Assembly: GCA_963772655.1 (NCBI GenBank)
Contig: CAVYYE010000003.1
Coordinates: forward strand, 2,865,341 to 2,888,863
DNA: 23,523 nucleotides
DNA from: an uncultured delta proteobacterium
GTDB taxonomy: Bacteria > Myxococcota_A > Polyangia > Haliangiales > Haliangiaceae
Direction of reading: 5' to 3'
Made by a program: the position numbers and the translations under genes. Within the stretch, counting starts at the first letter, position 1. Every line of letters starts with the position of its first letter. Shown in pieces: positions 2,453-23,335 of this stretch. Under the pieces are notes generated by a model, which did not search any database, was not told the origin of the DNA, and saw only the letters and a program-made list of their open reading frames with translations.

Positions 2453-3352
2453 GTGTCGGCGCGCGCGACATACCGGTGGTGCGCGATCTGCGTGGTGTTC
2501 GTGATCGCGTTCTCGATCGCGCAGCGCTGGGACGTGCTGTCGGCATCGCCGTTCCCGCTCGGGATCGACGGCTACTTCTATCCGGTCCAGCTGCGCTCGC
2601 TGCTCGCGCACGGCCACCTGCAGTATCCGGCCTCGCCGCTCGGGTTCTGGCTGCTGGCGCCGTTCGCGGCGGTCACCGATCCGATCGTCGGCGCCAAGCT
2701 CGGTGCCGCGGTGCTCGGTGCGGCGATCGCGATCCCGGCGTACGGGGTCGGCGCGCGCCTCGCTCGCACCGGCGATGACGCGGGTGGCGACCACGGTGCC
2801 GTCGGCGGACTGCTCGCTGCGACCCTCGCCACCACCAGCGCCGGCTCGATGTACCTGTCGATCGAGTTCGTCAAGAACGGCATCGGGCTCGGCGTCGCGC
2901 TGACCGCGGTGTGGTTGGTGCTGCGCGCCTGCGATCGCCGCGAGGGCTCGAATCGCGGGCGCATCGCGCTCGCGCTCGTCGGGCTCGTCGCCGCGGTGCT
3001 GACCCACAAGATGGCGGCCGCGCTCGCGATCGGGATCGCGGTCCCGGTGGTGATCGCCGAGGCGCGGGCGCGCGGTGCGCTGCGAGGTCGGGGCGCGCTC
3101 GTGATCGCCGGTGCGGTGATCGTCGCGATCGCCGCGCTGATCGTCGCCGGCATCGCGTGGCCGCGCCGGTTCGCGTCGATCGCGGATCTGTCGCTGGTCG
3201 AGCACCTGCTGTCCTCGCGCGCCGACGGGTCGCTCCCCGTGCTCGCCGGCCACCTGACGCTCGGCGACGAACCGCGGATCGGCGTCTGTGTCGCGATCGC
3301 CGCGCTGGTCGTGCTGATCGCCGACGGGATCTGGCGGCGCCGCGACGAGACT
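2453..3352 (+). CDS. membrane protein, N-terminal segment in frame 2 (about 300 aa with multiple TM helices)
   Basis: WCAICVVFVIAFSIAQRWDVLSASPFPLGIDGYFYPVQLRSLLAHGHLQYP... carries repeated hydrophobic helices. Codon usage is coding-like until about 3350. Confidence 0.5.
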
Positions 3353-3392
3353 GCCCGCCGATCCCCCGGGGCCCCGTGTCGTCCGGTGGACG

Positions 3393-3900
3393 ATGATCGT
3401 CCTCGGGCTCGCGATCGGCCTGCCGTGGCTCGACGTCTCGCACACCCAGGGCCTCGGCATGCGCCTGCGCGTGATCGCGTTCGTCCCGCTCGCGCTCGAC
3501 GCCGCGATCGTGCTCGGCATCGTGCTGCGGTATCTGCGACCGCTGCTCGCGCGTCCGTCGAAACCTCCCGCCGGCGAGCCGCCGCCGCGACGGTTCCCGG
3601 TGCACGCCGCGCTCGGCACCGCGCTCGCCGCGTTCGTGGTCGCGCTCCACACCGGCGGTGGACCGCGCACCGAGGGCCAGGTCGTCACGCATCCGGCACT
3701 GGTGACCAGCGCCCAGGCCCTGGTCGGCCGGCTGCCGCCCGACGCCGTGGCGATCGTCCCCGAGCGTCACATCGCGTTCATGATCGCGTGGTACGCGCGC
3801 GTGCCGGTCGCGCTGCGACCCGAGGGGATCGACGCGCACCGGCGGTGGCGCGTGATGCCGCTCGCGTTCATCGAGCGCGGCCCGACCCTCGATCGGGCCT
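3393..3900 (+). CDS. membrane protein, middle segment in frame 0
   Basis: ATG at 3393. MIVLGLAIGLPWLDVSHTQGLGMRLRVIAFVPLALDAAIVLGIVLRYL has TM helices, and GC3 is high through about 3897. Confidence 0.45.
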
Positions 3901-4062
3901 CGCCTGCTCGAGATCCGGGCACGCACCGATCTACCGCCCGTGATCGGCCTGCACCCGCACCACCCCAACGGGATGATCGCGGTGCCCGAGAAGACCTGGC
4001 GGGCCGTCCTCGCAAACCCTGCCCGCCGACGAGCGCGCGCTGTTCGAACGCTGGCCGACGAT

Positions 4063-4159
4063 CTAGGGGTCAGACACAAGTTGCACAAGTTTGTTGGGGG
4101 GGCAGACCCGCACTCGGTCTGGCACCGCACAAACTTGTGGAACTTGTGTCTGACCCTAG
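4063..4159. repeat. long imperfect inverted repeat; candidate bidirectional terminator or REP/MITE-like element
   Basis: The left arm 4063-4094 (ctaggggtcagacacaagttgcacaagtttgt) is the reverse complement of the right arm 4129-4159 (acaaacttgtggaacttgtgtctgaccctag), with one mismatch and one extra g. The loop carries a nested 6-bp hairpin (cagacc 4103-4108 / ggtctg 4116-4121). The arms are about 50% GC against about 70% background. The outer CTA(G) of each arm is the stop codon of a convergent gene, at 4064-4066 and 4156-4158. Confidence 0.7.
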
Positions 4160-5805
4160 CTGACGTCGGTCTCGGGGACGTCGTCGTCGGGTTTGAGCGC
4201 GGTCGCCTTGGGCAGCGTCGGCTTGGCCATCATCTTCTTGATGATCGGCGCGACCACGAATAGCGCGGCGGAGATCGCCAGCGACGTGATGATCAGCGTC
4301 ATGAACAGGAAGTGGTACCCGTGGCCCTCCGACAGACCGGCGGCACGTCCCGCGAGGTAGTTGCCGACGGCGGTGGCGAGGAACCACGTGCCCATCACCA
4401 TGCCGGCGAGCCGCGGCGGTGCGAGCTTCGACATCGACGATAGCCCGACCGGCGAGATGAACAGCTCCGCGCACGTCGATACGAAATACAGCGCGATCAG
4501 GTACATCGGACTGACGCGGTTGTAGTCGGTGTCGAGCGCGAGATCGTGCACGAACGGGAACTGCGCGAGCGTGTCGAGCGTGTCCTTGCGCTCGGTGATC
4601 GACGCCACCGTCGGCAGCAGCACCACGAACGACAGCGCCGTGAGGATCATGCCGATCGCGAACTTGATGGTCGGCGACGGTTCCTTGCCGGCCTTGGCGA
4701 GCTTGAGCCACATCCACGCGAACGGGCTCGCGAGCACGATGATGAAGAACGCGTTGGGGAACTGGTAGAAGCTGGCCTCGAGGTGGAGCCCGAGGAAGTC
4801 GCGGTGGACCATGTCCTGCGCGTACAGGGACAGCGTGGTGCTGGCCTGCTCGAACACGCCGAAGAACCCGATCGAGCCCAGGAACAGCGGCACGATCGCC
4901 GTGATCCGCTTGCGCTCCTCGGGCGCGACCATCTTGTAGTAGCCGACGAACAGGAGGATCGACGCGATGCCGAGGCCGATCCCGAAGATGTTGCCGATCA
5001 GCTCCTTGTCGAGCGTGATCACGCCGGCGGCGTCGAGCCCCCAGCCGAGCACGATGATGCCGATCAGGCCGCCGATCAGCCCCCACAGCACCGTGCGATC
5101 GCGCGCCGCGCGCCTGGGGTCGCTCGGGATCGTCGGGTGGAGGCCGGTCTCGCCGAGGGCCTTCCAGCCGGCGCGATACTGGATCAGGCCGAGCACCATG
5201 CCGAAGGCGGGCACCGCGAACGCGAACTGCCAGCACCAGTTGGGATCGATGCCGATGTCCGAGAGCAAGCCGCGGAACGTCTCGCTCTGCGCGATCAGCA
5301 TCCCGACGAACGGCGCGAAGAACGCGCCGATGTTGATGCCCATGTAGTAGATCGTGAACCCGGCGTCGCGGCGGATGTCCTTCTCGCCGTAGAGCTGGCC
5401 GACCAGCGTCGAGATGTTGGGCTTGAGAAAGCCGGTGCCGATCGCGATCAGGGCGAGGCCCGGATAGAACGTGGCATCGATCGGCAGCGCGAGACAGAAG
5501 TTGCCGAGCGCGATGCCGACGCCGCCGACCATCACCGCCTTGCGCTGGCCGATGAAGCGATCCGCGATCCAGCCGCCGGGCAGCGACAGCAGGTAGACCG
5601 AGGACATGTAGAGCGCCATCACCAGGCCCATCGACGCGGCCGACATGCCGCGGCCGCCACGCGCGACCGAGGTGACCATGTAGATGGCGAGGAACGTGCG
5701 CGCGCCGTAGTACGACAGGCGCTCCCACATCTCGGTGAAGAACAGCGTCTTGAGGCCGGCCGGATGCCCGAAAAACGCGCGGTCCGGATCCTTCGTGGCT
5801 GACAT
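4156..5805 (-). CDS. POT/PTR2 family proton-dependent di-/tripeptide transporter
   Basis: 549 aa. PTR2 signature 1 is present as GGWIADRFIGQRKAVMVGGVGIALGNF, and signature 2 as YYMGINIGAFFAP. The N-terminal ExxERFxYYG-like motif appears as TEMWERLSYYG. About 14 TM helices. RBS AAGGTG (5814-5819 on the + strand) lies 7 nt from the ATG. Confidence 0.9.
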   Translation of the reverse strand: MSATKDPDRAFFGHPAGLKTLFFTEMWERLSYYGARTFLAIYMVTSVARGGRGMSAASMGLVMALYMSSVYLLSLPGGWIADRFIGQRKAVMVGGVGIALGNFCLALPIDATFYPGLALIAIGTGFLKPNISTLVGQLYGEKDIRRDAGFTIYYMGINIGAFFAPFVGMLIAQSETFRGLLSDIGIDPNWCWQFAFAVPAFGMVLGLIQYRAGWKALGETGLHPTIPSDPRRAARDRTVLWGLIGGLIGIIVLGWGLDAAGVITLDKELIGNIFGIGLGIASILLFVGYYKMVAPEERKRITAIVPLFLGSIGFFGVFEQASTTLSLYAQDMVHRDFLGLHLEASFYQFPNAFFIIVLASPFAWMWLKLAKAGKEPSPTIKFAIGMILTALSFVVLLPTVASITERKDTLDTLAQFPFVHDLALDTDYNRVSPMYLIALYFVSTCAELFISPVGLSSMSKLAPPRLAGMVMGTWFLATAVGNYLAGRAAGLSEGHGYHFLFMTLIITSLAISAALFVVAPIIKKMMAKPTLPKATALKPDDDVPETDVS

Positions 5806-19278: not shown

Positions 19279-20208
19279 ATGAAGGTCAGGTTCTGGGGAG
19301 TTCGCGGTTCCATCCCCGTACCCGGTCGGGCGACCAGCCGGTACGGTGGAAACACGTCGTGCGTCGAGGTGCGGCCCAAGGGCGCGTCGCCGATCATCAT
19401 CGATGCGGGCACCGGGCTCCGGCGGCTGGGCAAGTCGTTGACGCAGGAGGCGTTCGGCGAGGGTAAGGGCACCACGACGATCCTGATCAGCCACACGCAC
19501 TGGGATCACGTGCAGGGCCTGCCGTTCTTCTCGCCGCTGTACCGCGCCGGCAACGCCGTCCACATCTTCGCCCGCCAGCGCGACACCCACCTCGAGGCGG
19601 TGTTCAGCCAGCAGCACGAGCTGCCGTACTTCCCGGTGCCGCTGTCGGCGATGCGCGCGGACATGTACTTCCACGAGCTCATCGAGGGCGCGCGGTTCGA
19701 CGTCGGCAAGGCCACGGTCACCACCGCGCGGCTCAACCATCCGTGGATCGCGATGGCCTACCGGATCGATGTCGATCGCGCGTCGGTCGTGTACTGCGCC
19801 GACACCGCGCCGTTCACCGACATCCTGTTCGGGCGCGAGTTCATGACCACGCCGCCCCGGCTCGATCAGGATCTGCCGCCGGAGGTCGTCGACGAGCTCG
19901 CCAAGATGCGCGCCGCCGTGGTCGCGCTCGCGAAGAACGCCGACCTCCTGATCTACGACACCCAGTTCACGATCGACGAGTACCGGCTGCGCCCGCACTG
20001 GGGACACTCGCATCCCGACGACGCGATCCAGATCGCGCGCGATGCCGGCGCCAAGCGGCTGTGCCTGTTCCACCACGCGCCGACGCGGTCCGACGACGAC
20101 AACGACGCGATCCTCGCCAAGTACCGCGAGGTCGTGACCGCGCAGCACGACAAGTTCGAGCTGATGAGTGCCTACGAGGGACTCGAGATTCCCCTGGGGG
20201 ACGAATGA
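19279..20208 (+). CDS. MBL-fold metallo-hydrolase (copy 1)
   Basis: 309 aa. MKVRFWGVRGSIPVPG..YGGNTSCVEV at the N-terminus and the metal-binding motif HTHWDH. Intact. Confidence 0.8.
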   Translation: MKVRFWGVRGSIPVPGRATSRYGGNTSCVEVRPKGASPIIIDAGTGLRRLGKSLTQEAFGEGKGTTTILISHTHWDHVQGLPFFSPLYRAGNAVHIFARQRDTHLEAVFSQQHELPYFPVPLSAMRADMYFHELIEGARFDVGKATVTTARLNHPWIAMAYRIDVDRASVVYCADTAPFTDILFGREFMTTPPRLDQDLPPEVVDELAKMRAAVVALAKNADLLIYDTQFTIDEYRLRPHWGHSHPDDAIQIARDAGAKRLCLFHHAPTRSDDDNDAILAKYREVVTAQHDKFELMSAYEGLEIPLGDE

Positions 20209-20248
20209 CCAGACCAACGTGCGGGCAAATGCCGGCCGGAGGTCGGCG

Positions 20249-21113
20249 ATGAAGATCCGGTTCTGGGGAGTCCGCGGCTCGATCCCCGCGCCCGGACCCG
20301 ACACGATTCGCTACGGTGGCAACACCTCGTGCGTGTCGGTACACACCGCGAGCGGCGGGCTGGTGATCATCGACATGGGCACCGGGCTCATGCACCTCGG
20401 CAATGCCCTGATGGCCGGCGAGTTCGGCAAGGGTCAGGGCCGCGCGCTGTTCCTGCTGTCGCACACGCACTGGGATCACATCCAGGGGCTCGGCTTCTTC
20501 CCGCCGGTGTTCGTCGGCGGCAACCAGTTCACGGTGTGGGGGCCCGGCGACACGCCGGAGGTGCTCGAGCAGATCCTCGAGGGCCAGATGGATCCCAACT
20601 TCTCGCCGCTGCAGTCGCTCAAGAACTTCTCCGCCGGGTTCGACGTCCGCTCGCTGACCTGCGGCAAGCCGTGGGAGGCCGAGGGCGTGTCGATCATCGG
20701 GCAGGAGCACCCGCACGGCGGGACGATCGCGCTCGGGTTCCGGATCACCGAGGGCACCGGCGCCGCGGCGAAGACGTTCGTCTACGCCTCCGATGTCGGC
20801 TACCCGGAGACCGGGCCGTCCGACGAGGCGATCGCGTTCTACCGGGGCGCCGACGTGCTCCTCCACGACACCACGTATCGGCCCGCCGACCAGGCGACGC
20901 GGCGCAACCGCGGGTTCGCGTCGTACGAGGACGCCGCCGACGCCGCGGTCAAGGCGAAGGTCAAGCGCCTGGTGATGTTCCACTACGACCAGGACTACTC
21001 CGACGACGACGTCGACGAGATTCTGCGAGCTCACGCGCGCCGCGCTCGACACCCGCGGCGGCAAGGCCATCGGGCTCGTCCCGGCGCGCGAAGGCGACGA
21101 GCTCGAGGTCTAG
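20249..21113 (+). CDS. MBL-fold metallo-hydrolase (copy 2, tandem paralog) with an apparent frameshift about 30 codons from the 3' end
   Basis: MKIRFWGVRGSIPAPG..YGGNTSCVSV and HTHWDH are present. GGAGGT sits 5 nt upstream of ATG 20249. Coding signal is in frame 2 to about 21027 (...SDDDVDEIL), then continues in frame 0 (ELTRAALDTRGGKAIGLVPAREGDELEV*) to TAG 21111-21113. This parallels the copy-1 C-terminus. Frame 2 beyond 21030 is non-coding by codon usage. Confidence 0.6.
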
Positions 21114-21119
21114 CGCGTC

Positions 21120-21617
21120 GTGGCCTTCGACCTGATCGCCGAGCTCGAAGCGCTCGTCGATGCGTTCGAACGCGAGCACGTCGAGTACGCCGTGTGCGGG
21201 GGGCTGGCGCTCGCCATGCACGGGTACCCGCGAGCGACGATGGACATCGACGTCCTCGTGCCCGCCTCACAACTCGCCGAGGCGATGCGTATCGTTCGTT
21301 CCCTCGGATTCGACGTCCCCGCACGCAAGATGACGTTCGGCCTCCAGGCCGGTACGCCACGCGAGGTCCAACGGATCTCCAAGCTCGATCCGACGACGGG
21401 CGAGCTGCTCCCGGTGGACCTTTTGGTCGTCGCGCCAGATCTCGAGGAAGTCTGGAACACGCGGATGCCGACCCGAAGCGGCACGAGAAAACTCGTCATC
21501 GTCTCCCGCGAGGGCCTTGCTACGATGAAGAGGATCGCCGGACGACCCAAGGACCTCCTCGATCTCGCCCAGCTCGAACATGACGACACCAACGGCAACG
21601 ACTCCGGACCGGCGTGA
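21120..21617 (+). CDS. Pol-beta-superfamily nucleotidyltransferase-like protein (short AbiEii/MNT-like family)
   Basis: 165 aa with a GTG start at 21120 (first start after the MBL2 stop; no clear SD). The NTase motif appears as CGGLALAMHGYPRATMDIDVLV (hG[GS]..x9-13..DhDh). The C-terminal RIAGRPKDLLDLAQL is typical of this family. GC3 is noticeably lower than in flanking genes. Confidence 0.55.
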   Translation: MAFDLIAELEALVDAFEREHVEYAVCGGLALAMHGYPRATMDIDVLVPASQLAEAMRIVRSLGFDVPARKMTFGLQAGTPREVQRISKLDPTTGELLPVDLLVVAPDLEEVWNTRMPTRSGTRKLVIVSREGLATMKRIAGRPKDLLDLAQLEHDDTNGNDSGPA

Positions 21618-21630
21618 CGCGGCGATCGAC

Positions 21631-21747
21631 ATGTCTCCGGCGGCCGTCGCGGCGCGGCTCGAGCAGGTGCGTGCGCTTTACAAGCTCATGGTCTACCTGC
21701 GCCGGTTCCAGCCCGCCGAGGTAGCCGAGCGTGAACCTCGGACGTGA
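21631..21747 (+). CDS. small ORF 1 (38 aa), paralog of small ORF 2
   Basis: The ATG lies 13 bp after the NTase stop. The product is MSPAAVAARLEQVRALYKLMVYLRRFQPAEVAEREPRT. It shares the motif MS.AA.A.R.E..R.LYKLM.YLR with the next ORF. Confidence 0.35.
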   Translation: MSPAAVAARLEQVRALYKLMVYLRRFQPAEVAEREPRT

Positions 21748-21757
21748 ACAGGTGGAC

Positions 21758-21916
21758 ATGTCGCAGGCCGCCTTGGCCCGGCGGCACGAGGACATGCGTC
21801 AGCTCTACAAGCTGATGATGTACCTGCGGCACGCCCGCTACGTCGGCCCCGTCGAGCCCCGCGCCGTCGATCCGGACGCCGTCAGCGACCGCCGAACGCG
21901 CGGCTCTGGGCGTTGA
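21758..21916 (+). CDS. small ORF 2 (52 aa), paralog of small ORF 1
   Basis: The product is MSQAALARRHEDMRQLYKLMMYLRHARYVGPVEPRAVDPD.... The ATG lies 10 bp after the small ORF 1 stop (GTG 21731 is also in frame). 15 of the first 24 residues are identical to small ORF 1, with 6 synonymous codon differences. The 3' end overlaps the convergent gene by 35 bp. Confidence 0.35.
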   Translation: MSQAALARRHEDMRQLYKLMMYLRHARYVGPVEPRAVDPDAVSDRRTRGSGR

Positions 21917-22781
21917 GAAAGATGCCGCCCATCCAGCTGTCGTCGATCAGGCTCTTGCCGGCGACCACGCCGAGCTGGCCGAACGGCGAGAACCACCAGC
22001 CGCCGCGCACGCGGGCCTCGACCACGCCCGTCGCCCGGAGGATCGACGTCTGCTGCTCGCACGCGCCGTAGCTCGACGCGTAGTTGTACATCAGCGAGCG
22101 ACCACCGCCCGCGACCTCGGCGCCGAGGGCGAGATGGCCGGTACGACCGGCGAGGCCGAGCGCGACATCGCCGCCGACCAGCATCACGCTCGTCGGGCGG
22201 ATCGTCGGTGCGCCGCGTGCGCCGACGTCGAGCATCGTCGCGTGCGCGTCGTCGCCGACGCCGCCGATCTCGCCGTCGAACGCCAGATACAGCCCGCCCG
22301 GCAAGCCGATGCCGAGTCGCATCGCGAACGCCAGCGCGGTGTCGCGATTCGGTGCGCCGCCGCCGCTCGGCGGCTGGACCACGCGATACGAGAACGTCTC
22401 GTCGTTGTGGGTCACCAATCCGTTGGCCTCGCCGAGTGGGCTCGCGAACTCGCGCATCACCATCCCCATCTCGAGGATGACCTTCGGTAGCCGGAGGTTG
22501 GTCGCCCACTTGCCGTACGGCGTGCAGTGCCGGAACCCGACGATGTCCGTGTCGTCGACGCACGCCGGGGTCGAGCTGCTCGAGCTGCCCGAGTCGCTGT
22601 AGCTGCTCCCGCCGCCACCGGAGCTTCCGCCGGAGCTGCCGCCCGAGCTCCCTCCGCTCGAGCCGCCGCCGCCGCAACTGCCGCCTCCGCCACCACCACC
22701 ACCGCCACCGGCGAGGGCGACTCCGGGTCGCATCGCCACCAGGCTCGCGATCGCCAGGCCGAGCGTGATCGCGCGCTTCAT
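21882..22781 (-). CDS. secreted protein with a poly-Gly/Ser linker and a C-terminal domain of unknown function
   Basis: ATG at 22781 with GGAGGTG 6 nt upstream. It forms an ATGA overlap with the upstream lipoprotein. Signal peptide MKRAITLGLAIASLVAMRPGVALA, then G10-SC-(GGSS)n-S-rich, then about a 230-aa Gly/Ala-rich domain. ORF 21882..23330 in the track carries an N-terminal out-of-context Arg-rich extension. Confidence 0.6.
   Translation of the reverse strand: MKRAITLGLAIASLVAMRPGVALAGGGGGGGGGGSCGGGGSSGGSSGGSSGGSSGGGGSSYSDSGSSSSSTPACVDDTDIVGFRHCTPYGKWATNLRLPKVILEMGMVMREFASPLGEANGLVTHNDETFSYRVVQPPSGGGAPNRDTALAFAMRLGIGLPGGLYLAFDGEIGGVGDDAHATMLDVGARGAPTIRPTSVMLVGGDVALGLAGRTGHLALGAEVAGGGRSLMYNYASSYGACEQQTSILRATGVVEARVRGGWWFSPFGQLGVVAGKSLIDDSWMGGIFLNAQSRAFGGR
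22596..22725. repeat. low-complexity GGN/GCC-type coding repeat (poly-Gly/Ser linker)
   Basis: It is read directly from the sequence. It encodes AGGGGGGGGGGSCGGGGSSGGSSGGSSGGSSGGGGSS. Confidence 0.7.
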
Positions 22782-23335
22782 GGCGTCACCTCCGGAGCCT
22801 CGTCGTCGACGATCTGACTGCGGTTGGCGTCGGCGTCGGCGTCGGCGGCCGCCGTGCGCGCGGCCTCGGCTTCGAAGCCCGGTTCGTCCTCGCGGAGTGG
22901 AAGCCCCTTGCGAGCGAAGCACATCCATCGCGACGGGCCGGCGTCGTCGCCGAGTGTCGCCACGTCGACGCAGACCTGCACCATCGCCTCGTGCGCCGGA
23001 TAGCTCAGCGCCTCGGCGCCCGACAGCCGGCCGTCGAGGGGAAGCGGTCGGATCGTGCCGTCGGGATCGAACGGCCGGAGCGTGTGCTCGCGACCCTCGG
23101 CGTCGCGGCCGACCACGTCGAGGTGTGCGAGGTCGACCGTCTGCGGACCCTCGCAGCGATTCGCGAACTCGAACGACAGCACCGACCAGCCGTCGTGATC
23201 CGCGCGGCGGTCGACGGCGAGGTCGAGGCAGCCCACCGTCGTGCGCGTGCCGGGAAAGTAGTTGAGACCGTGGTGAAACGAGCCCGGCGAGTACGAGCAT
23301 CCCGCCACGGTGATCGCGATCGCGCCCCATCGCAT
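22778..23335 (-). CDS. hypothetical lipoprotein
   Basis: ATG at 23335. MRWGAIAITVAGCSYSPGS is a signal peptide plus lipobox VAGC. 185 aa. The track ORF 22778..23407 adds 24 aa lacking signal-peptide character. Confidence 0.6.
   Translation of the reverse strand: MRWGAIAITVAGCSYSPGSFHHGLNYFPGTRTTVGCLDLAVDRRADHDGWSVLSFEFANRCEGPQTVDLAHLDVVGRDAEGREHTLRPFDPDGTIRPLPLDGRLSGAEALSYPAHEAMVQVCVDVATLGDDAGPSRWMCFARKGLPLREDEPGFEAEAARTAAADADADANRSQIVDDEAPEVTP

Follow-up and report, generated by a model that had tools for sequence, protein, structure and literature searches.

The stretch of DNA analysed in this study, hereafter the window, comprises 23,523 nucleotides of contig CAVYYE010000003.1 from an uncultured delta proteobacterium of the Haliangiaceae. 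Toward its end lies, on the plus strand, a gene for a nucleotidyltransferase (NTase) that is followed by two short tandem open reading frames (ORFs), here called ORF1 and ORF2 (Table 1). An earlier note on this sequence had placed the block between a metallo-beta-lactamase (MBL)-fold gene and a convergent gene, and had proposed it as an undescribed system; the placement was confirmed. Judged from its recurrence in other genomes, the NTase gene, together with the overlapping gene for a short helical protein, is a conserved, self-contained bicistronic module.

The small open reading frames and their protein family

ORF1 and ORF2 share the motif MS.AA.A.R.E..R.LYKLM.YLR and are 56% identical in amino-acid sequence over the aligned part. 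At the DNA level they carry a direct repeat, the two 74-nt copies of which are 76% identical and are spaced by 127 nt from start to start. The two tandem ORFs with a common LYKLM motif that the earlier note had recognised were thus found again. A hidden Markov model (HMM) built without the window sequences was searched against the entire 23.5-kb window, translated in all six frames. The model hit ORF1 with 58.6 bits (E 1e-17) and ORF2 with 52.5 bits (E 8e-16), and no other place, the next best segment reaching 5.2 bits. Since exactly these two places were hit, the similarity between ORF1 and ORF2 is not a chance product of GC-rich sequence. In ORF1, the conserved core IDMSPAAVAARLEQVRALYKLMVYLRR coincides with the one helix predicted, which spans residues 20-42 of its 55-aa form; the core of ORF2 is VDMSQAALARRHEDMRQLYKLMMYLRH. 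In the AlphaFold2 (AF2) model of the 55-aa form of ORF1, one helix was predicted with a predicted local distance difference test (pLDDT) score above 90, and the ends were disordered.

The start codons of both ORFs had to be revised. The ORFs had been read as 38 aa from the ATG at 21631 (ORF1) and as 52 aa from the ATG at 21758 (ORF2). Several orthologs (L012, L016, L082, L023 and L056), however, have Leu or Tyr in place of the Met of the DMS motif, and this Met therefore cannot be the start codon; a start at this residue was rejected. The small proteins of Acidobacteriota begin with MKKVDMS. Comparison with these orthologs indicates that the true starts most likely lie upstream, at the ATG (55 aa) and the GTG (61 aa) listed in Table 1. 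The 61-aa version of ORF2 is the public gene call, and P0121 is an identical called protein. ORF1 was left uncalled by the gene predictor in the Logan contig of a near-identical strain.

Table 1. Genes and repeats of the locus, numbered from the first nucleotide of the window.
Feature	Position	Strand	Remarks
NTase gene, 165 aa	21120..21617	+	GTG start, 6 nt past the MBL2 stop codon
Small ORF1, type A, likeliest 55 aa	21580..21747	+	ATG 21580; 38-nt overlap with the NTase 3' end
Small ORF2, type B, likeliest 61 aa	21731..21916	+	GTG 21731, GAGG 9 nt upstream
Direct repeat copy 1, 74 nt	21628..21701	+	spans the ORF1 DMS motif and helix core
Direct repeat copy 2, 74 nt	21755..21828	+	spans the ORF2 core
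MBL1, MBL-fold gene (Lactamase_B_2)	19279-20208		first of two tandem paralogs upstream of the NTase gene
MBL2, second MBL-fold paralog (Lactamase_B_2)	20246..21113	+	directly upstream of the NTase gene
Convergent Gly/Ser-rich putative lipoprotein gene	21882..22838	-	no Pfam family; 3' end overlaps ORF2

Over the 29 aligned core codons of ORF1 and ORF2, we counted 6 synonymous and 12 non-synonymous changes, with a proportion of synonymous differences (pS) of 0.40, a proportion of non-synonymous differences (pN) of 0.28 and an omega of about 0.6. The earlier statement that the copies differ mainly at third positions could not be upheld, and the ORF1/ORF2 pair, taken alone, is no proof of purifying selection.

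The family as a whole gave a clearer picture. Eighty genome loci were chosen by the NTase alone and were then scanned for a small ORF. In all 80, as well as in 13 of 13 close metagenome loci, a small ORF on the NTase strand overlapped or abutted the NTase stop codon, so that homologs of the small ORFs in synteny with the NTase were found throughout. About 75 of the 80 loci gave an HMM match next to or across the NTase stop codon; the remaining ones carried, at the same position, a divergent form, LTPELVxxRLxxLxxLxxLGxSLL. The core consensus is [IV]DMSxxA[IV]xxRLxx[VI]xxLxxLxxxL. The hosts belong to at least six phyla and include Myxococcota, Acidobacteriota (Pyrinomonadaceae, Blastocatellia, Thermoanaerobaculia and Aminicenantes), Planctomycetota, Verrucomicrobiales, Cloacimonadota and Sumerlaeota. 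Small partner proteins of 36-57 aa were also found in a search of 5.8 billion proteins, several of them on contigs that match those of NTase homologs in length, and among 1.84 billion representatives the helix family formed 385 clusters at 50% identity (E <= 1e-3), almost all of 30-90 aa.

The pN/pS ratio was 0.41-0.53 in the proposed frame versus 0.94-1.68 in the shifted frames; the raw ratio for 80 unique core sequences was 0.53 in the proposed frame and 0.94 and 1.51 in the shifted ones. Column entropy in the helix cores decreased from the third over the first to the second codon position. It is on this family-wide conservation and frame-specific substitution, and not on the ORF1/ORF2 pair, that we judged the small ORFs to be coding. 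These facts support the earlier view that the small ORFs are real, translated and diverged paralogs. The claim of purifying selection holds for the family and not for the pair from which it had been drawn.

The frame of the small ORF relative to the NTase is mostly +1, but 0 and +2 also occur. The small ORF is therefore a separate gene, probably translationally coupled, rather than a frameshift extension. We rejected a programmed frameshift that would fuse the small ORF to the NTase, because all three frames are found and the small ORF has its own start codon.

The partner is predicted to be a protein of 40-60 aa with one amphipathic helix and disordered ends. Ser or Thr is nearly invariant at the helix start in the partner alignment, and the conserved S/T-P-E that opens the helix looks like an N-cap; a conserved Rx4-6H motif is absent from the same alignment. 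The helix family had no match in Pfam, NCBIfam or PADLOC and no homolog in the PDB, and the small ORFs had none among the defence models of PADLOC-DB v2. A comparison of the small partner with all PDB chains returned only weak coiled-coil noise, for example GCN4. In the literature searched on AbiEii/MenT antitoxins, a downstream helical partner is undescribed, and for DUF6036 and NTP_transf_5 the search returned no papers. With respect to the helix partner, the description of the system as undescribed was thus sustained.

At the 3' end of the block, the last 35 nt of ORF2 (21882-21916) are shared with the convergent lipoprotein gene, the two 3' ends overlapping, and no terminator-like structure was detected between ORF2 and that gene. 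Scans of the block for Rfam matches, promoters and terminators found none. Between the near-identical strains L086 and L087, one indel swaps the frame of the tail and leaves the core untouched. Because of this indel and of the overlap with the convergent gene, the C-terminal tail of ORF2 is not independently constrained, and its conservation does not count as separate evidence.

The nucleotidyltransferase and its relation to MenT1

The NTase matched the Pfam family AbiEii (PF08843) with 28.9 bits (gathering cut-off 22.5; E 1.4e-6), its residues 12-157 aligning with profile positions 6-173 of 238. The score against DUF6036 (PF19502) was 22.5 bits, just short of the Pfam cut-off of 23.6. Since a PF19502 hit is precomputed for many close homologs of the NTase, its membership of DUF6036 is borderline. 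NTP_transf_5 fell slightly under its Pfam threshold, Aminoglyc_resit scored below its cut-off, and no MNT family was among the Pfam matches. We collected 344 homologs of about 160 aa, nearly all of them 157-165 aa in length and 60-76% identical, which confirmed the earlier assignment of a 165-aa Pol-beta-type NTase and its completeness. We rejected the possibility that the NTase is a fragment of a larger gene, since its family has a uniform length of about 160 aa and any longer entries are explained by overcalled N-termini or by read-through.

The AbiEii/DUF1814 proteins are characterised by the motifs hG[GS]x(9-15)DhD with an Arg inside motif II, K..A..R, and +DxxD (PMC3985639). All four motifs are present in the NTase, as C26-G27-G28 (motif I), R38-A-T40-M-D42-I-D44 (motif II), K137..A140.R142 (motif III) and K144-D145-L-L-D148 (motif IV). 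G27, G28, R38, T40, D42 and D44 are invariant across 26 homologs, and K137, A140, R142, D145 and D148 are likewise invariant in the alignment of NTase homologs.

In a profile search against all PDB sequences, the best match was the Mycobacterium tuberculosis toxin MenT1 (8an4, E 2e-4); TM1012 and LnuA gave E-values of 0.02-0.13 in the same search. The profile alignment equated T40, D42, K137, D145 and D148 of the NTase with T39, D41, K137, D149 and D152 of MenT1. The AF2 model of the NTase had a pLDDT of 87. A Foldseek search with this model returned LnuA, TM1012, MenT1 and ANT(2'')-Ia, the top TM-score being 0.70, for MenT1, at 19-21% identity. Its motifs and profile matches mark the NTase as a complete, MenT1-like member of the AbiEii/DUF1814 superfamily and a minimal enzyme of the Pol-beta type. 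The same comparisons indicate that its relation to MenT1 is distant homology, not orthology.

Genomic context, age and duplication of the module

The order MBL1, MBL2, NTase, small ORF(s) and convergent gene is kept in the relatives L016, L082, L086/87, L002 and L163, and the MBL proteins are about 80% identical between the window and these relatives. The two MBL paralogs, 34-37% identical to each other, lie in tandem directly upstream of the NTase throughout the clade of the window, in L163 at 3218-5001. A recent horizontal insert was rejected on the basis of this synteny, from which the block is judged to be older than this genome. The GC content at third codon positions (GC3) is 0.81 in the NTase gene and 0.77-0.79 in ORF1, compared with 0.93-0.95 in the MBL genes. 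The deviating codon usage pointed out in the earlier note is therefore real, while the horizontal acquisition read from it was not supported. The module has a lowered GC3 in other genomes too (L162-L164), so the low value is characteristic of the module itself and does not point to a recent acquisition.

Compared with its orthologs in L016, L082 and L163, the MBL2 gene of the window has 1 nt inserted near 21022-21030. The insertion puts the last ~29 codons out of frame, and the conserved C-terminus, ...GGKAIGLVPAREGDELEV*, is found in frame +1, where it ends at the TAG at 21111-21113; the original frame continues to 21583 through the NTase gene. The insertion is either a pseudogenising mutation or an assembly error. 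In L163, the stop codon of the MBL2 ortholog overlaps the NTase start, and this ortholog has a precomputed hit to PF23023, the Anti-Pycsar Apyc1 family of cyclic-nucleotide phosphodiesterases.

In Acidobacteriota, 17 of 31 loci, mostly of Pyrinomonadaceae, share one upstream gene. A conserved third gene was nevertheless rejected: no flanking family is common to the phyla, and the sole mixed cluster consists of Ser/Thr kinases at variable positions. Since no flanking gene family is common across phyla, the module has two components. In one metagenome-assembled genome (MAG) of Acidobacteriota (L069, 4001-5169), two complete modules of NTase and helix ORF stand in tandem.

Two tandem helix ORFs are present in the window, in the near-identical L081, in L012, L016 and L163, and probably in L082. 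In L163, both were called by the gene predictor, with 50 and 41 aa. ORF1 of the window is of the common type (RLEQVRALYKLM). ORF2 belongs to the subtype RRHE[DE]MRQLYKLMMYLR (type B), which is the first or only copy in P0122, L016, L082 and L163. The copy content at the syntenic locus thus differs between relatives. In other proteins (P0206, P0214, P0241, P0233, P0262 and that of L028, 2108-2398), two DMSPEA..RL repeats occur within a single ORF. The double-repeat partners, to which P0266 and P0133 also belong, have a short first repeat and then a full helix, and P0133 resembles two tandem copies that have fused. Because double-repeat ORFs and fused copies are found in other lineages, the helix has been duplicated repeatedly and independently. 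The second helix copy is a lineage-specific, recurrent duplication, and the core unit is the NTase with one downstream helix gene. The likeness to a toxin-antitoxin or defence module proposed earlier was kept in that a conserved two-gene module is present, and the architecture was corrected to this unit, with the second copy as a duplication.

The comparison between the window and L081 (Logan contig, SRR12659820) revealed 9 differences in 935 nt: 7 lie in ORF2 and one, a synonymous change, lies in ORF1, and the NTase gene has none. Those in ORF2 lie within 21749-21861 in three clusters and cause 3 amino-acid changes. ORF2 is a local hot spot of variation, which could reflect relaxed constraint, diversifying selection or gene conversion.

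A possible toxin-antitoxin pair

The toxins of the AbiEii/MenT type are NTases that extend tRNA 3' ends and so stop translation; they have been studied as phage-defence and persistence factors. The antitoxins that accompany them vary strikingly, and to our knowledge few have been characterised. MenT1 adds CMP to tRNA 3' ends, and its antitoxin MenA1 is a helical protein of 68 aa without a DNA-binding domain, the first 32 residues of which suffice (PMC10435456, PMC11375011). MenA1 spans two MenT1 protomers asymmetrically and induces autophosphorylation of T39 (PMC10435456, PMC11375011). The menA1 gene is located upstream of the menT-like gene in 15 of 21 cases (PMC10435456).

The decay of the module gave a hint of its polarity. 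In L165 (160-660), the NTase is reduced to ~25 N-terminal and ~30 C-terminal codons; in L074 (3780-4470), it has lost the first ~50 codons with the catalytic motifs, as compared with L010. The helix ORF is intact in both. In P0166, an NTase lacking ~27 internal residues is fused in frame to an intact helix. An intact NTase without a helix ORF was found at none of the loci examined of the window's NTase clade. Since three independent crippled NTases keep the helix ORF and the converse was not seen, the polarity in which the NTase is the toxin is favoured.

The sister NTases of the DUF6036 type (L095-L161), which are ~33% identical to the window protein, have no downstream helix ORF. They have instead a conserved ORF of 63 aa (MNRKHTAIYRMSD..FVPG..RLQRH..) that overlaps the NTase start, for example in L160 (2320-2511 and 2456-2932), and that had no match in Pfam, NCBIfam or the PDB. 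This ORF may represent a second unannotated partner family. Such swapping of partners is typical of toxin-antitoxin families, and the module therefore fits them in this respect. As a further hint, in a Myxococcota MAG (L164, 5745-7189, minus strand), a canonical AbiEii of 251 aa (PF08843, 69.9 bits) is encoded immediately downstream of the module, with a partner of 230 aa that is weakly AbiEi-like or MarR-like.

We propose, as the reading that fits best, that the module is a MenAT1-like toxin-antitoxin pair with reversed gene order and an unrelated short helical antitoxin, a proposal made by analogy, for and against which the chances seem to us evenly balanced. The NTase would be a MenT1-like toxin that blocks aminoacylation by extending tRNA acceptor stems with nucleotides at their 3' ends. 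The small helix protein would be the antitoxin, binding across the active-site face of the NTase; it might bridge two NTase protomers, as MenA1 does, and may trigger inhibitory autophosphorylation at Thr40, an invariant residue that corresponds to T39 of MenT1. The toxin-first order with an overlapping start would suggest translational coupling. ORF2 would be a diverged extra antitoxin, which may give bivalency or heteromeric binding, or may be drifting.

Several points weigh against this proposal. The partner has no sequence similarity to MenA1 or to any solved protein, and it is encoded downstream of the NTase, not upstream. In the window's clade, the NTase is probably co-transcribed with the MBL genes and not expressed from an autoregulated promoter of its own, and a promoter scan found no sigma-70-like promoter for the NTase. 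The module is vertically stable within families and less mobile than many toxin-antitoxin systems, and NTase homologs were absent from the plasmid and phage collections searched. By Foldseek E-value, the antibiotic NTase LnuA and TM1012 rank at the top, not MenT1, and the sole PADLOC-DB v2 match of the NTase was AbiEii PDLC02314 with E 0.041 and 11.2 bits. The cases of a decayed NTase are few (three) and recent. Finally, toxicity, binding and activity are properties that we infer by analogy for every member of the family.

Some of these points would be accounted for if the NTase were a non-toxic enzyme, either a small-molecule or antibiotic NTase like LnuA and ANT(2'')-Ia or a housekeeping modifier of RNA or protein. 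The helix would then be a regulatory or specificity subunit, and there would be no addiction or growth arrest. We consider this unlikely, if still worthy of serious attention. It would agree with the best Foldseek E-values (LnuA, TM1012 and ANT(2'')-Ia), with the stable synteny, with the absence from the plasmids and phages searched, and with the position of the module in an operon behind two MBL-fold hydrolases in the window's clade. Furthermore, DUF1814 proteins are not all toxic, as MenT2 is not (PMC7450476). It agrees less well with the sequence affinity to AbiEii and MenT1, which includes the family-specific motif IV (+DxxD) and the Arg of motif II, nor would it lead one to expect the asymmetric decay, with loss of the NTase but retention of the helix ORF, or the swap of partner in the sister clade. 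The MBL context, moreover, is confined to one clade.

The polarity might also be the reverse, as in the type VII system HepT-MntA, so that the NTase would be an antitoxin or modifier that nucleotidylates the Ser/Thr of the DMS motif in a small effector protein. MNT antitoxins AMPylate their HEPN toxins in HepT-MntA. With this polarity, the NTase-first order would match the usual antitoxin-first arrangement, and the almost invariant S/T at the helix start would be the modified residue; the S/T-P-E there is, however, sufficiently explained as an N-cap. The NTase matches the AbiEii/MenT1 toxins and no MNT family, and the partner, which lacks the Rx4-6H of HEPN proteins, is a charged amphipathic helix, neither a catalytic-type fold nor a membrane peptide. 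Loci with a dead NTase keep the small ORF intact, a state that would kill the cell or serve no purpose if the toxin were the small protein. We therefore regard reversed polarity as improbable. It is hardly credible, in our view, that the small ORFs are not genes but an RNA element or, in this GC-rich sequence, a DNA repeat of chance or structural nature. ORF1 did escape the gene predictor, its omega with ORF2 is close to 0.6, and spurious ORFs abound in high-GC genomes. The amino-acid motif, however, is kept at a constant position and strand in at least six phyla of very different GC content, selection is frame-specific, the protein library holds 385 clusters of the family, no Rfam match was found, and the varying frame relative to the NTase excludes a frameshift fusion.

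The toxin-antitoxin proposal was further examined by comparison with known systems. The module resembles MenAT1 (Rv0078A/Rv0078B) in its compact AbiEii-type NTase (165 aa, versus 196 aa in MenT1), in the shared catalytic set with its Thr phospho-acceptor (T40 here, T39 in MenT1), and in a very short helical partner without a DNA-binding domain whose gene overlaps that of the NTase, the likeness of the partners being in form only. It differs from MenAT1 in that the NTases are only ~20% identical, the hosts are Myxococcota, Acidobacteriota and Planctomycetota and not Actinobacteria, the partner is downstream in every locus and often duplicated, and one helix is predicted in the partner versus two in MenA1. 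A profile of 30 small proteins searched against all PDB chains, among them the Rv0078A-Rv0078B complex (8an5), gave no hit to MenA1 at E-values up to 10. Since the antitoxin is non-homologous and the gene order is opposite, the module is not a MenAT1 ortholog. With AbiE (AbiEi/AbiEii, type IV), it shares the PF08843 match above threshold and motifs I-IV including +DxxD. The winged-helix AbiEi (COG5340), however, is missing here, the upstream gene being a Lactamase_B_2 MBL gene and the partner a downstream helix of 55 aa; lacking AbiEi, the module does not qualify as AbiE. The minimal NTases of DUF6036 (PF19502) are equal in size and fold, but their bona fide members (L095-L161) have the 63-aa upstream ORF in place of the downstream helix ORF. 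HepT-MntA likewise has a minimal NTase first and a small helical partner second, whereas its NTase is of another family, the partner here has no HEPN motif or fold, and the polarity we favour is the opposite; the module is not a HEPN-MNT system. LnuA, ANT(2'')-Ia and TM1012 are of similar length and have the best Foldseek E-values; they are single-gene enzymes without a small partner, and their sequence similarity to the NTase is weak or not significant.

What is new here is the family of small helix partners, the inverted gene order and the recurrent duplication; the mechanistic framework was already known. The module, well supported as a real and widespread unit, adds an unannotated partner family that accompanies one and the same NTase clade in at least six phyla. 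The helix partner is often missed by gene callers, which argues for a small-protein model in annotation pipelines. If the module is a true toxin-antitoxin pair, it would provide a second, independent helix of ~30 residues that controls a minimal MenT-like NTase, in a system whose gene order is inverted and whose helix has been duplicated recurrently, and would make the generality of the MenA1 mechanism testable. A bolder extension, which we hold to be doubtful and which is again drawn by analogy, is that the DMS-helix proteins form a phylum-spanning class of antitoxins acting as bivalent clamps, in which two helices bridge the protomers and switch on the autophosphorylation of Thr40. The two helices might be supplied by tandem genes, as in the window, or by two repeats in one gene, a detail of the clamp that we hold to be equally doubtful. 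If this is true, the antitoxin-induced autophosphorylation seen with MenA1 and MenA3 would extend beyond mycobacteria to Myxococcota, Acidobacteriota, Planctomycetota and others, and unrelated peptides would have converged on one control mechanism.

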